Virus genome (UHGV): UHGV-1359874
DNA: 64,000 nucleotides
Source: a virus
Reading direction: 5' to 3' (one strand)
Shown in pieces: positions 10,719 to 23,076 of the stretch (position 1 is the first letter of the stretch; every line of letters starts with the position of its first letter). The position numbers were made by a program, and so were the translations under genes. A model generated the notes under the pieces. That model did no database searches. It was not told the origin of the DNA and saw nothing but the letters and a program-made list of their open reading frames with translations.

Positions 10719-11687
10719 ATGTCAGAAATAGATAACTATAAACAAATTCCAGTAGGAAGAGGAAAAGATTATTCTAATCAAAGAATAGGAGATTTTTTGA
10801 TCTTTTTCCGAACTGAACCACCAAAAGATAAAAACCCGAATAATGCTTATTGGCTTTGTCAATGTCAAAAATGTAAAAAATATGAAATCATTCAAGCTCC
10901 AAGAATAAGTAAAGGTATTATGAAATGTTCTTGTAGAAATGATTTAACTGGAAAAACTTTTGGAAGATGGACAGTACAATATTTATGTGAACAAAAAACA
11001 AAAAAGAGAGGGAATCTTTGGCATTGTAAATGTTTATGCGGAAATGAAAAAGACGTTCCTGCTGAAACCCTTGCACGAGGAGAGAGCCAGAGTTGTGGCT
11101 GTCTTCATAGAGAATCTGTTATAAAAATGTGCCATTCAAATAGAATTAATTTAACAGGGCAACGTTTTGGGAAACTAATTGCTTTATATCCGATTTATAG
11201 TAAAGAAAAAAATACTCATACTAAATGGCATTGCAAATGTGACTGTGGGAATGAGTGTGATATAGATATGGGCAATCTTCGTAGTGGAAAAAGTCAGTCT
11301 TGTGGATGCACTAATTCTAAGCAAGAAGAAAAAATAATTAAATTACTTATTGAAAACAATATTTCTTTTAATTATCAAGATAATAATTTTTTAGATAAAA
11401 GTAAAAAATTTGATTTTTATATAAAAGAAAATTTAAATGAATATATTATTGAATTTGATGGTCAACAACATTTCTTTTATACTGGAACTGGATGGGACAC
11501 AAAAGAACACTATGAAAGAACTCATAAAAACGATTTGATTAAAAATAAATATTGCTTTGATAATAGTATCCCATTAATTCGTATTCCATATGATGCAGAA
11601 TATACAATAGATGATTTAAGACTTGAAACAACAAGGTTTCTTTTAACACCTGAGAATGAAGAAGAATATTATTCCAAGAGGATGTAA
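10719..11687 (+). CDS. free-standing homing-endonuclease-like protein: Cys-rich tandem repeats + C-terminal Vsr/DUF559-like PD-(D/E)XK nuclease domain
   Basis: Three repeats of the type LTGxxFGxxxV...WHCKCxCGNE...SQSCGC. The C-terminus YIIEFDGQQHF...KNDLIKNKYCFDNSIPLIRIPY matches the Vsr-like E-x-D-x3-H ... D-x2-R/K ... hhRh pattern. It is a paralog of 21885-22886. I trimmed the start to the ATG with the aaaggagaag RBS. Confidence 0.55.
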   Translation: MSEIDNYKQIPVGRGKDYSNQRIGDFLIFFRTEPPKDKNPNNAYWLCQCQKCKKYEIIQAPRISKGIMKCSCRNDLTGKTFGRWTVQYLCEQKTKKRGNLWHCKCLCGNEKDVPAETLARGESQSCGCLHRESVIKMCHSNRINLTGQRFGKLIALYPIYSKEKNTHTKWHCKCDCGNECDIDMGNLRSGKSQSCGCTNSKQEEKIIKLLIENNISFNYQDNNFLDKSKKFDFYIKENLNEYIIEFDGQQHFFYTGTGWDTKEHYERTHKNDLIKNKYCFDNSIPLIRIPYDAEYTIDDLRLETTRFLLTPENEEEYYSKRM

Positions 11688-11689
11688 AT

Positions 11690-12187
11690 ATGAAACTAGC
11701 TCTAAGCTATTTCTACCAAATCCGCAACTTTAAGCCGTACATGATTCCAGTCTCTACGGCGTTCGGAGATCCAGCCTGGTTCCATGCAGGTCTAGGTAAA
11801 ACTTACAATTACTTAGATAAAAGAGGAGTAGTAAATGGACTCCGTTGTGAAGAATTACATGGAGATAATTCATGTAATAGTGAAGTTGAAGTTACTTGTC
11901 CATGTGAATATCATAAAGTTGGGTATCCAGGCGGGTGCCCAGCTATGGCAGAGTATCGCCAACACCTTGAAGAATTAGACCTAGATTCTTTTATAAATCG
12001 AGCTAATACTGCCGCAAATGATATTAAAACCCACCTAAGATTTAAAGAAGAACCAATAATTGTATTGATGGTTCATGAAGCACCAGATAATCCATGTAGT
12101 GAACGTCAATCATTATTAGATTATTTTAATTCTCATAACATACCTCTTGAAGAATTAAAATATCCAATAAGTGAAAATTATATCTAA
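11690..12187 (+). CDS. hypothetical Cys-rich protein
   Basis: CPCEYHKVGYPGGCP cluster. 165 aa. Confidence 0.4.
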   Translation: MKLALSYFYQIRNFKPYMIPVSTAFGDPAWFHAGLGKTYNYLDKRGVVNGLRCEELHGDNSCNSEVEVTCPCEYHKVGYPGGCPAMAEYRQHLEELDLDSFINRANTAANDIKTHLRFKEEPIIVLMVHEAPDNPCSERQSLLDYFNSHNIPLEELKYPISENYI

Positions 12188-12203
12188 ATATAGTATTTTC
12201 TAT

Positions 12204-12231
12204 TGATTTGTAGCAATATATATGGTATAAT
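12204..12231 (+). promoter_or_regulatory. promoter TTGATT-16-TGgTATAAT
   Basis: Lies upstream of the polymerase gene. Confidence 0.45.
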
Positions 12232-12264
12232 ATAATAAGAAAAGATAAAGGGAGGTTTAGGTAA

Positions 12265-20911: not shown

Positions 20912-21175
20912 ATGAATAAGAAAATTATTGCTATTCTTCATCCTTTTGAGTATAAGCATTTTATTTATGTTTATCAGGATGGAAATAAAATTGATATGAC
21001 AAAAGTTCTAATTGATGATGTTCCGGATAATATCATTACTTTTGCTGAAAAATATAAGATTAATAAAATTGAGTTGTCTGGCCCTAAGCAATATGCAAAA
21101 GGTATCCAGAAGAAGATTCAAGAATATGAAATCACTAAATATGGTAAATCTAGACTTGATATTGAGTTGATTTAA
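20912..21175 (+). CDS. hypothetical protein
   Basis: 87 aa. Confidence 0.4.
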   Translation: MNKKIIAILHPFEYKHFIYVYQDGNKIDMTKVLIDDVPDNIITFAEKYKINKIELSGPKQYAKGIQKKIQEYEITKYGKSRLDIELI

Positions 21176-21198
21176 GATAAAAGGAGATAAAAGGAATT

Positions 21199-21459
21199 AT
21201 GAGTAAGCATCTTATTAAGGTTGAAGAAACTTGGCGTGCAGATTCTGAGGCGGAAGCTGCTCAGTTAATTAATGAAGCTAAGTCTGATGGCAGTTTTGAA
21301 CTGGCTAAGTATTCTTCTACACGCAGAACTATCAAGCAGAAGGGCGAGATTGTTGAAGAGTATATGCGAGTCTCTCTCCTGAAGGTTTTCGATGAAGAAA
21401 AGGAACCAGTGAATGACGTTAAGGTTTCCTATGAGGTTACTGATTCTTTTTTAAAGTGA
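21199..21459 (+). CDS. hypothetical protein
   Basis: aaaggagataaaagga RBS. 86 aa. Confidence 0.45.
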   Translation: MSKHLIKVEETWRADSEAEAAQLINEAKSDGSFELAKYSSTRRTIKQKGEIVEEYMRVSLLKVFDEEKEPVNDVKVSYEVTDSFLK

Positions 21460-21470
21460 GGTAAAATTTA

Positions 21471-21707
21471 ATGTTTATTAAAATTAAGTATTTTGATGAA
21501 TCAATGCCTAAACTTGAATTTATCGAAGGTAAGAAATCTGATTGGATTGATTTGCGGGCAGCTGAGGAACTCTTTATTCCTGCTAATACTTTTGCAATGA
21601 TTCATCTGGGAGTAGCCATGAAGCTACCTGAAGGTTATGAAGCTCATATTGCACCTCGTTCCTCAACTTTCAAGAAATGGGGAATCATTCAGGTTAACTC
21701 TGTCGGT
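21471..21707 (+). CDS. dut: dUTPase, exon 1 (motifs 1-2)
   Basis: Motif 2 is IAPRSS. The sequence ends ...GIIQVNSVG just before conserved motif 3. The ORF track then runs into K-stop. Confidence 0.7.
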
Positions 21708-23076
21708 AAATAAAAATTCCTAAAAAAGTTTGGTCGAAGTTCTTTCACCGGCGTAAGATAAAATTCATATAATAATGAAAAATAAAAGAAAAAGGAGTTT
21801 TGTCTTATAGCTACTAAAACTATTAATTTTGGAACGGATGAATTTTTTATTTCTAAATATAAAGAATTAAAAAGTTCAAGAAAAATGGGAGAATTTTTTG
21901 ACTGTAATAAAACTTCTGTTTTAAATCATTGTAAAAAAATTGGATTTGATCCAAAAAGTCTTCAATCTCCTAAGTTAACAGAAAAACAAAAACAAGAAAT
22001 TATTTCTTTATATGAAGAAAAAACAGCTTCAGAATTAGCTAAAGTATATAATGTTTCAGATAGTTTAATCTCAAAAGTTTGGATGGAGGCTGGCAAAAGA
22101 GGAAAAAAACGAGTAGGTTGGTGCCATGATTTAACAGGACAAACTTTTGGCTATTTAACTGTTATTGAAAAAACAGATAAAAGAGGTCCAAGTGGCGGAG
22201 TTATTTGGAAATGCTCTTGTAATTGTGGATTACCTTCTTGTTTAAAAGAAAAAGATATTCTTGGAGCTACTTTATTAGAAGGAAAAACGATTTCTTGCGG
22301 AGCAGTAGGAAAAAAGAATTTAGAAAAAGGAAGAGAAGTAAAAAATTTAATTGGTCAAAAATTTGGTCATTTAACAGTGATAAAAAGAGCTGAAAATAAA
22401 ATTTTCCCTTCTGGATATTCTGCTTCTCAATGGTTATGTAAATGTGACTGCGGCAATGAAACAATTATTCTTGGAAGCAACTTAATTTCAGGGAATAGCC
22501 AATCTTGCATTTATTGCAAAAAATCTCATGGAGAAAATAAAATTGAAGAACTTTTAAAAGAAAATAAACTTTCTTTTACTAGAGAACAAAGATTTGATAC
22601 TTGTAAAAATATTAGACCTTTACCTTTTGACTTTTATGTAAATAATCAATATTTAATAGAATTTGATGGTAAGCAGCATTTTGAAGCAACAGGTGAAAGA
22701 TTTAATGAAGAAGTTGTACAAGATATTCAAAAAAGAGATAGCATAAAGAATGAATGGTGTAAAAAAAATAATATTCCACTAATTCGTATTCCTTATTCTC
22801 ATTATAATGATTTAAAAATTGAAGATTTATTACTTGAAACTACAACTTTCTTAGTCAATAATGCCGACATAAAATCGCGGAATTAAGCGGGAAAGCTGAG
22901 ATGCTAATCCGAACCGAAGGCTAGGTTCAGCCTAGTCAGGGGCAACGCATAGGGAGTGAAAAGATATAATCTCCCCACGAGGCCGCGATACTTAAAAAGT
23001 AAAAAGATATGCTGAACTTATACAAATAAGAAGTATAAGAATTATAGGATAAAAAGCCTATAAGATAACATAAATG
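21708..23076 (+). mobile_element. group I intron (family B) in dut, with Vsr-like HE ORF
   Basis: ggt|aaat 5' junction and the 3' block aaaagatatgctgaactta...aagaagtataagaa...aggataaaaa...gataacataaatg are shared with the ATPase intron 2. The caacgcatagg element is also shared. Confidence 0.6.
21885..22886 (+). CDS. intron-encoded homing endonuclease: Cys-rich repeats + Vsr/DUF559-like PD-(D/E)XK domain
   Basis: Two repeats of the type L[TI]GQxFGxLTVI...WxCKCDCGNE...SGNSQSC. The C-terminus YLIEFDGKQHF...NNIPLIRIPY...LLETTTFL is a paralog of 10719-11687. Confidence 0.55.
   Translation: MGEFFDCNKTSVLNHCKKIGFDPKSLQSPKLTEKQKQEIISLYEEKTASELAKVYNVSDSLISKVWMEAGKRGKKRVGWCHDLTGQTFGYLTVIEKTDKRGPSGGVIWKCSCNCGLPSCLKEKDILGATLLEGKTISCGAVGKKNLEKGREVKNLIGQKFGHLTVIKRAENKIFPSGYSASQWLCKCDCGNETIILGSNLISGNSQSCIYCKKSHGENKIEELLKENKLSFTREQRFDTCKNIRPLPFDFYVNNQYLIEFDGKQHFEATGERFNEEVVQDIQKRDSIKNEWCKKNNIPLIRIPYSHYNDLKIEDLLLETTTFLVNNADIKSRN

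Follow-up and report, generated by a model that had tools for sequence, protein, structure and literature searches.

Among the modular nucleases of phages are the endonucleases of the I-TevI and I-HmuI types and the T4-like free-standing seg and mob genes. The EDxHD family has as its prototype I-Bth0305I, which joins NUMOD2-type helix-turn-helix (HTH) motifs to a Vsr-like domain (PMC3239194; PDB 3r3p); the enzyme is a homodimer with a ~60 bp footprint and 2-nt 5' overhangs, its nuclease domains reading the central 14 bp and its flanking contacts being largely non-specific (PMC3239194). Merk et al. (NAR 2025; PMC12350094) described phage endonucleases of group II and group I introns in which three to five ~60-aa domains resembling CapR, DUF4379 or DUF723 precede a C-terminal EDxHD/Vsr-like domain, and proposed that these modules act like NUMOD DNA-binding units. 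Here we analyse two open reading frames (ORFs), ORF A and ORF B, in a 64,000-nt stretch of the virus genome UHGV-1359874 (hereafter the window; ~33% GC, phage-like, with a strand switch near 24 kb). We read both as EDxHD/Vsr-like homing endonucleases, from a branch in which an array of small Cys-rich modules precedes a C-terminal Vsr-type PD-(D/E)XK domain, and give this reading a probability of roughly 80%. The endonuclease family and its plan of tandem modules before a Vsr-like domain are already known (Merk et al. 2025, PMC12350094); the window adds two new members.

A preliminary description of this DNA had marked ORFs at 10719-11687 and 21885-22886, and both are present there (the features of the two elements and of their host genes all lie on the + strand). 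ORF A (10719-11687, 322 aa) is a free-standing gene with three Cys repeats and a Vsr-like nuclease domain, and ORF B (21807-22886) is intron-encoded, with a product of 359 aa from its ancestral start or 333 aa from the ATG at 21885. The two align with 42% identity over 252 aa (BLASTP, E = 8e-49) and again, because of their internal repeats, in a second alignment that is out of register (BLASTP, E = 5e-7); they are paralogues and, from their sequences, appear to be homing endonucleases. Under a profile of 1321 repeats, ORF A has three copies (residues 20-72, 76-129 and 145-197) and ORF B has two (residues 109-166 and 181-235, counting from 21807), which bears out the earlier account of two to three tandem copies of ~55 aa, the unit being about 54 aa. 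ORF A repeat 1 (10776-10934) is degenerate, reading CxCxxC...CxC, and scores E = 6e-7 as a domain of the deep repeat hidden Markov model (HMM), against 9e-22 for repeat 2 (10944-11105) and 3e-25 for repeat 3 (11151-11309). ORF B repeat 1 (22131-22304) has a 5-aa insertion after the CxCxCG knuckle and Ala in place of the last Cys, and repeat 2 (22347-22511), for which an AlphaFold2 (AF2) model of the single repeat reaches a predicted local distance difference test (pLDDT) score of 90, ends in SCxxC. Both frames are intact and keep all invariant nuclease residues; a profile search found no further copy of either the repeat or the nuclease domain within the 64 kb window.

The nuclease domain occupies 11310-11645 in ORF A, where it includes FDF...IIEFDGQQH...ND..K...IPLIRIPY and the nuclease HMM matches at E = 3e-38, and 22524-22856 in ORF B. 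In an alignment of 22 diverse domains, the D of FDF, the E and G of IE[FY]DG, and the H, D and K that follow are invariant, a set resembling the catalytic residues reported for I-Bth0305I (D196/H213/D222) and Vsr (D51/H69/D97; PMC3239194). The D-to-H spacing is 16 residues here, 17 in I-Bth0305I and 18 in Vsr, and the H-to-D spacing varies more (20, 9 and 28, respectively). Because of these invariant residues and a D-to-H spacing like that of I-Bth0305I and Vsr, we uphold the previous assignment of a Vsr-like PD-(D/E)XK fold to the C-terminal domain. Pfam gives sub-threshold matches only (DUF2726, DUF5889, DUF559, TnsA-like and RAP), and PHROG gives E = 1e-16 to 1e-26 for its families "homing endonuclease" and "intron encoded nuclease"; judging from domain size and secondary structure, the database matches probably belong to the C-terminal ~110 residues. 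By BLASTP the domain is 41% identical over 140 aa to a protein of Staphylococcus phage S6 (E = 4e-21) and 31% identical over 144 aa to gp146 of Bacillus phage AR9 (E = 2e-12), and 421 GenBank phage records match ORF B at E ≤ 1e-5.

The repeat (hereafter Cys5, for its five cysteines) has the consensus L-T-G-Q-x-F-G-x-L-T-V, a variable hairpin, W-x-C-x-C-x-C-G-N, exactly 17 residues and S-C-G-C. Over 1364 distinct repeats the cysteines are conserved at 95% (C28), 96% (C30), 96% (C32), 94% (C51) and 86% (C53), and four conserved putative Cys/His ligands are present in two knuckles; the mean net charge is +4.2, with 96% of modules positive. Arrays comprise 1 to 13 modules per protein, with a median period of 64 aa across the family. 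Pfam and NCBIfam have no model for the repeat, which went unmatched even when proteins of 7-10 repeats were searched at E ≤ 10, and literature searches, motif strings included, found no description of it. Of 1.84 billion cluster representatives, the repeat profile nonetheless recovers 114,145 at E ≤ 1e-3, and 51,651 when the cut-off is tightened to E ≤ 1e-10. This exhaustive search was the one informative on fusions, a word-indexed search with a 57-aa profile having only short proteins among the 120 matches listed. Sampled fusion partners are AP2, HTH_3, MTES_1575-type nuclease and superfamily 2 (SF2) helicase domains; stand-alone Cys-repeat proteins of 70-100 aa also exist, as does a 583-aa protein (P0002) with about ten Cys repeats and no nuclease domain. 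Among cultured phages the module is found in 147 records, from Firmicutes and Proteobacteria hosts, where it is mostly labelled "HNH endonuclease" or "hypothetical".

Several individual proteins are worth recording. In P0296 (1226 aa) and P0305 (1117 aa), an SF2 (ResIII/Helicase_C) helicase is followed on its C-terminal side by 11-13 repeats. A single repeat of P0002 exceeds the Pfam cut-off for DUF6129, over 20 residues only, and DUF6129 may overlap the first hairpin of the repeat. In Clostridioides phage phiCDKH02, a 275-aa "dUTPase" between tail genes (PP767789.1 32315-33142; L294 1989-2816) matches the Cys-repeat region with 33% identity over 121 aa, and its annotation as a dUTPase is probably wrong.

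That the repeat is a modular zinc-binding DNA reader is plausible, and the view is well motivated because the cysteines are conserved, the charge is basic and the fusion partners are nucleases and DNA-binding domains. Counting against it, the predicted fold of the repeat matches small SH3/Tudor-like barrels and not a classical zinc ribbon. We consider it unlikely, although deserving of serious attention, that the repeats are something other than sequence-reading zinc modules, with specificity residing mainly in a dimeric nuclease domain (and, in ORF B, its HTH units) and the repeats contributing non-specific DNA affinity, oligomerisation, or RNA or protein binding. I-Bth0305I, with its central 14 bp read by the nuclease domains and its largely non-specific flanks (PMC3239194), is a precedent for such a division of labour, and the repeat model resembles Tudor, SH3 and KOW barrels, many of which bind protein or RNA. 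Solved zinc ribbons and treble clefs give no fold match for the repeat, and solved zinc domains no significant profile match (DPH3 is best, at E ~1). These points must be set against five cysteines ~86-96% conserved in cytoplasmic phage proteins, the strongly basic character of the modules, copy numbers from 1 to 13, and partners that are repeatedly nuclease, AP2, HTH or helicase domains. A further counterweight is that the repeat profile aligns, weakly but in register, with the DUF4379/CapR-type modules that related endonucleases carry: hhalign gave a probability of 15% with small profiles and 51% with deep ones (P = 1.5e-4, 23-39 in-register columns), with C30-x-C32-G falling on [H/C]xxCG and C51 on the leading Cys of CxxC. 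The two kinds of module may share a distant origin, and CapR itself is described (PMC8096241) as an endonuclease that has been domesticated and controls the expression of phage genes. Carrying the zinc-module view further, CxCxCG-17-SCGC might define an undescribed family of autonomous, zinc-stapled small-barrel DNA-reading modules, each ~54-aa module recognising a short sub-site and arrays of 1 to 13 setting the target length and specificity of many phage and bacterial nucleases, AP2/HTH proteins and helicases. We offer this tentatively and would expect it to fail more often than not; if true, nature would have here a modular code for recognising DNA, much in the spirit of zinc-finger arrays.

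Genomic context also bears on the homing endonuclease reading. A megablast search of GenBank phages gave no match to 14.6 kb of the window, after which protein-guided scans of IMG/VR located a near-identical relative, IMGVR_UViG_3300045988_126685 (130.6 kb), which is 96-98.6% identical across the region of interest and both flanks. This contig lacks ORF A, the intron in the dUTPase gene dut that hosts ORF B, and a further intron in nrdD (see below), and supplies empty-site sequences for the helicase locus (L001) and the dut locus (L085). ORF A and the dut intron are thus polymorphic between genomes 96-98% identical, which implies recent gain or loss.

At the first of these loci, ORF A directly follows the stop codon of a superfamily 1 (SF1; Dda/RecD-like) helicase gene (9439-10644; Pfam AAA_30 and UvrD_C_2). 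The window has 1088 nt (10602-11689), made up of a variant helicase 3' end, an intergenic leader and ORF A, in place of 51 nt in the relative, where there is no insert and the stop codon of the helicase shares bases with the ATG of the gene that follows (ATAATG; junction ...GGTGAAGGGTGGGGTATAATGAAACTAGC...). The blastn alignment to L001 breaks at 10601, and identity with the relative returns exactly at the ATG of ORF165. Since both neighbours are complete genes, ORF A does not lie inside an unrecognised intron, and its description as free-standing holds. A survey of 80 loci, whose helicases are only 43-57% identical, found intact ORF A orthologues directly after the helicase stop in three (L028, L009 and L056; 36-37% identical to ORF A and sharing a ETTRFLLTPENE..YY tail, TPENE..YY) and fragmented copies at the same site in three others (L027, L074 and L021). 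Such a pattern of invasion, persistence and decay at one site is the expected trace of a site-specific free-standing homing endonuclease gene, as ORF A appears to be. The fragmented copies (L027 5496-5984, L074 5216-6058 and L021 5454-6889) contain frameshifts or stops and have the appearance of endonuclease genes in decay.

At its 3' end the helicase gene has ~43 nt (10602-10644) wholly unlike positions 5152-5202 of L001 (LYTACTRASSRLVLVR versus LYTCVTRSSSKLVLVKGGV), the remainder being 96% identical; this divergent end may be a tract of co-conversion or a form of the target that resists cleavage. Another indel, of ~380 nt, lies upstream of the helicase gene (window ~8945-9013 versus L001 3115-3495). 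The 74-nt leader of ORF A contains a stable stem-loop (10667-10702) that ends one base before the ribosome-binding site AAAGGAG (10703-10709) and has a fold z-score of -4.5 as RNA, with 0 of 200 shuffles folding as well; it may control expression or RNA processing of ORF A. Scans for sigma-70 promoters and terminators around ORF A performed no better than chance.

ORF B lies in an insertion that, aligned with the uninterrupted dut of L085, divides the window gene into exon 1 (21471-21707, ending ...GTCGGT), an intron of 1369 nt (21708-23076, ending ...AAATG) and exon 2 (23077-23274, beginning GTTATTGAT...). The dut of the relative is continuous, and the joined window exons reproduce its reading frame with 99% protein identity. 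From this alignment the insertion point is exactly between GGT and GTT; the element-free dut junction is ...CAAGTCAACTCTGTCGGT/GTCGTGGATGAG..., and the intronless dut of IMGVR_UViG_3300045988_126685 reads ...CTCTGTCGGT/GTCGTGGATG... around it. Five substitutions relative to that gene fall within 18 nt of the junction and five in the other ~430 nt.

Since Rfam, searched with three sub-regions at E ≤ 10, was silent, we turned to comparative analysis of the intron. Its ribozyme core (22863-23076) comprises a candidate guide, P3, P4-P6, a P7.1-like hairpin, P8 and P9. As candidate internal guide, GCCGAC (22863-22868) pairs with GUCGGU at the end of exon 1, terminal U.G included, and it occupies the position at which members of this intron class hold their guide sequence. 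An alignment of 31 cores shows a long-range P3 helix around a P4-P6-like domain, followed by four more hairpins; 96.7% of cells in the consensus pair, with compensatory change in 29 of 36 pairs, and none of 500 shuffles equalled this pairing and covariation, slid controls pairing at 31-45%. The proposed P7 is invariant and hence outside the reach of covariation. The 214 nt before exon 2 also hold an invariant 17-mer, TCAGGGGCAACGCATAG (22936-22952), which occurs in at least 120 IMG/VR contigs (loci L169-L287), in many different genes and with various endonuclease ORFs or none. Judged from translated exon ends, host genes of this class look like terminase, gyrase/topoisomerase and structural genes. 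Two candidates were rejected: UUCAGC/GCUGAA as P7, UUCAG being the 3' strand of a covarying hairpin in the other introns, and ACCGGC (21749-21754) as internal guide, being unconserved in orthologous dut introns and lacking the U.G wobble.

With an uninterrupted dut in the relative, a 5' exon ending in U and an intron ending in G, and a covarying core, ORF B is intron-encoded, as had been proposed, and the dut insertion is best read as a group I intron for which self-splicing is predicted. A fractured dut, in which the endonuclease cassette leaves two separately translated halves, is in our estimate very improbable. Exon 1 does run into a Lys codon and a stop, and an in-frame ATG (23074) stands immediately before exon 2, but no ribosome-binding site precedes that ATG; and although Rfam finds no group I intron in the insertion, the 214 nt leading up to exon 2 are of a conserved RNA class that is present in at least 120 viral contigs and in many genes. 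The long-range P3 helix and the 29 of 36 covarying pairs of the core likewise speak against fracture, as do the boundary bases and the pairing of the guide with the exon end. Split genes around Vsr-like endonucleases are reportedly a known arrangement, said to have been described by Dassa et al. in 2009, and we have counted this in favour of a fractured gene.

Within the group I intron, ORF B probably sits 5' of the entire core, in the P1 loop, and its last eight codons (NADIKSRN, 22863-22886) overlap the guide, P3 and J3/4. Because the RNA core encodes it, this tail is common to many homologues and is missing from ORF A. Similar tails (NADIKSQD, ...GIKREG and ...KSRN) occur in homologues and in frames upstream of ORF-less introns; their recurrence upstream of introns with no ORF argues for a constraint on the RNA and not on the protein. 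Other contigs carry ORF B orthologues, 52-53% identical, within this same dut intron.

The earlier choice of 21885 as the start of ORF B needs correction: the ancestral start almost certainly lies 78 nt farther upstream, at 21807. The codon there is ATA in the window and ATG in a 95%-identical relative (P0001), and an AGGAG ribosome-binding site stands 9 nt upstream, none such being placed for 21885; we read the start as 21807 because of the ATG in P0001 and the spacing of AGGAG. The ATA could signify low-level non-canonical initiation or early decay. From this start, residues ~10-95 of ORF B are helical and resemble the paired HTH DNA-binding domains of Tc3/Mos1 transposases; the two HTH units (21834-22091) are peculiar to ORF B and missing from ORF A. 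Initiation at the ATG at 21885 would cut away part of the first unit.

The altered start codon is one reason to ask whether one or both genes are no longer active, being decaying remnants or domesticated DNA-binding regulators like CapR of the PLE satellite. We judge this improbable. Decayed copies of the ORF A lineage do exist (L027, L074 and L021), as do arrays without a nuclease, such as the roughly ten repeats of P0002 and the stand-alone proteins of 70-100 aa; the frames of A and B are nevertheless intact with every invariant nuclease residue kept, a ribosome-binding site still stands in front of 21807, and both elements are polymorphic between genomes 96-98% identical.

Weighing on the other side from the reading of A and B as EDxHD/Vsr-like homing endonucleases are three observations. 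With its ATA at the ancestral start, ORF B may be poorly expressed or beginning to decay. Neither I-Bth0305I (3r3p) nor Vsr nor any other PDB chain was matched at E ≤ 10 by phmmer and profile searches, and sequence and profile searches of the PDB returned nothing significant for full-length A or B or for the profiles of nuclease and repeat, so that only fold and motif connect A and B with the founding family. Finally, for the intron and for its core alone, Rfam's group I model gives no match, whether at its gathering threshold or at E ≤ 10.

Under the homing endonuclease reading we infer metal binding, DNA binding by the modules, dimerisation, the cleavage sites and present-day activity, and the following course can be proposed. 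Each basic Cys5 module would probably hold one zinc ion, lie along the DNA and position the protein, and the nuclease domain would probably be dimeric, as in I-Bth0305I. An element-free allele would be cut by way of the conserved D...E-x-D-x3-H...D-x2-K residues, and repair from an element-carrying genome in the same co-infection would copy the element in. Since the group I intron with ORF B in its P1 loop would splice itself out, dUTPase would still be made; ORF A would persist as a cassette standing free in the space after the helicase stop and before the gene that follows.

The window contains a second intron (18430-19511), of another class than the dut intron, in nrdD (anaerobic ribonucleotide reductase), with ...TACCAT at the end of exon 1 and ATTCCTG at the beginning of exon 2; this intron too is missing from the near-identical relative. 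Its ORF (18640-19341, 233 aa) matches PHROG "HNH endonuclease" families and has no Pfam match, and its N terminus resembles one degenerate Cys repeat (CxxC...SCG; repeat HMM E = 0.06).

What the window adds to the published picture is an array built from a different, abundant module, unrepresented among Pfam and NCBIfam models yet joined to DNA enzymes of many kinds. Having intron-borne and free-standing paralogues in one genome, and a 96-98% identical genome without either, provides ready substrates for locating cleavage sites, and the paralogue pair also lets module number be related to target length. The host intron belongs to a large phage intron class missed by the Rfam group I model. Should the reading of DNA by these modules prove modular, engineered nucleases might be built from them.

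We compared A and B with the examples of Merk et al. and two other proteins, the set being AR9 gp146, MarsHill gp114, S6_1720, I-MsaI (phage MSA6) and PBS1 gp270. Like the endonucleases of Merk et al., A and B have tandem ~60-aa Cys-containing modules followed by a nuclease domain that is homologous in both groups (31-41% identity, E = 2e-12 to 4e-21), and the genes are found in phage introns or stand alone. The modules themselves differ: those of Merk et al. read [C/H]xxCG...CxxC and match Pfam DUF4379 (E = 1e-17) and CapR, whereas those of A and B read CxCxCG-17-SCGC, with five Cys, and have no match to Pfam CapR, DUF4379 or DUF723 even at E ≤ 10. ORF B differs further in bearing its two extra N-terminal HTH units. 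I-Bth0305I has no Cys-rich repeats and no detectable sequence similarity to A or B, and its ORF lies in P5 of its intron and not, as ORF B probably does, in the P1 loop, 5' of the entire core. E. coli Vsr, of very-short-patch repair and here grouped with the DUF559 and RAP domains, is a single-domain mismatch-nicking enzyme with its own zinc site, in contrast to the multidomain A and B, which behave as mobile elements. I-TevI and I-HmuI, a comparison drawn for I-Bth0305I too (PMC3239194), likewise combine a nuclease with a series of small DNA-binding modules, which the repeats of A and B probably are; among those of I-TevI is a zinc finger. As with the I-TevI type and the seg and mob genes of T4-like phages, there are intron-borne and free-standing intergenic copies with sequence divergence beside the insertion site. 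The folds of I-TevI and I-HmuI are GIY-YIG and HNH, however, and relative to these enzymes A and B have the reverse domain order and unrelated DNA-binding modules.

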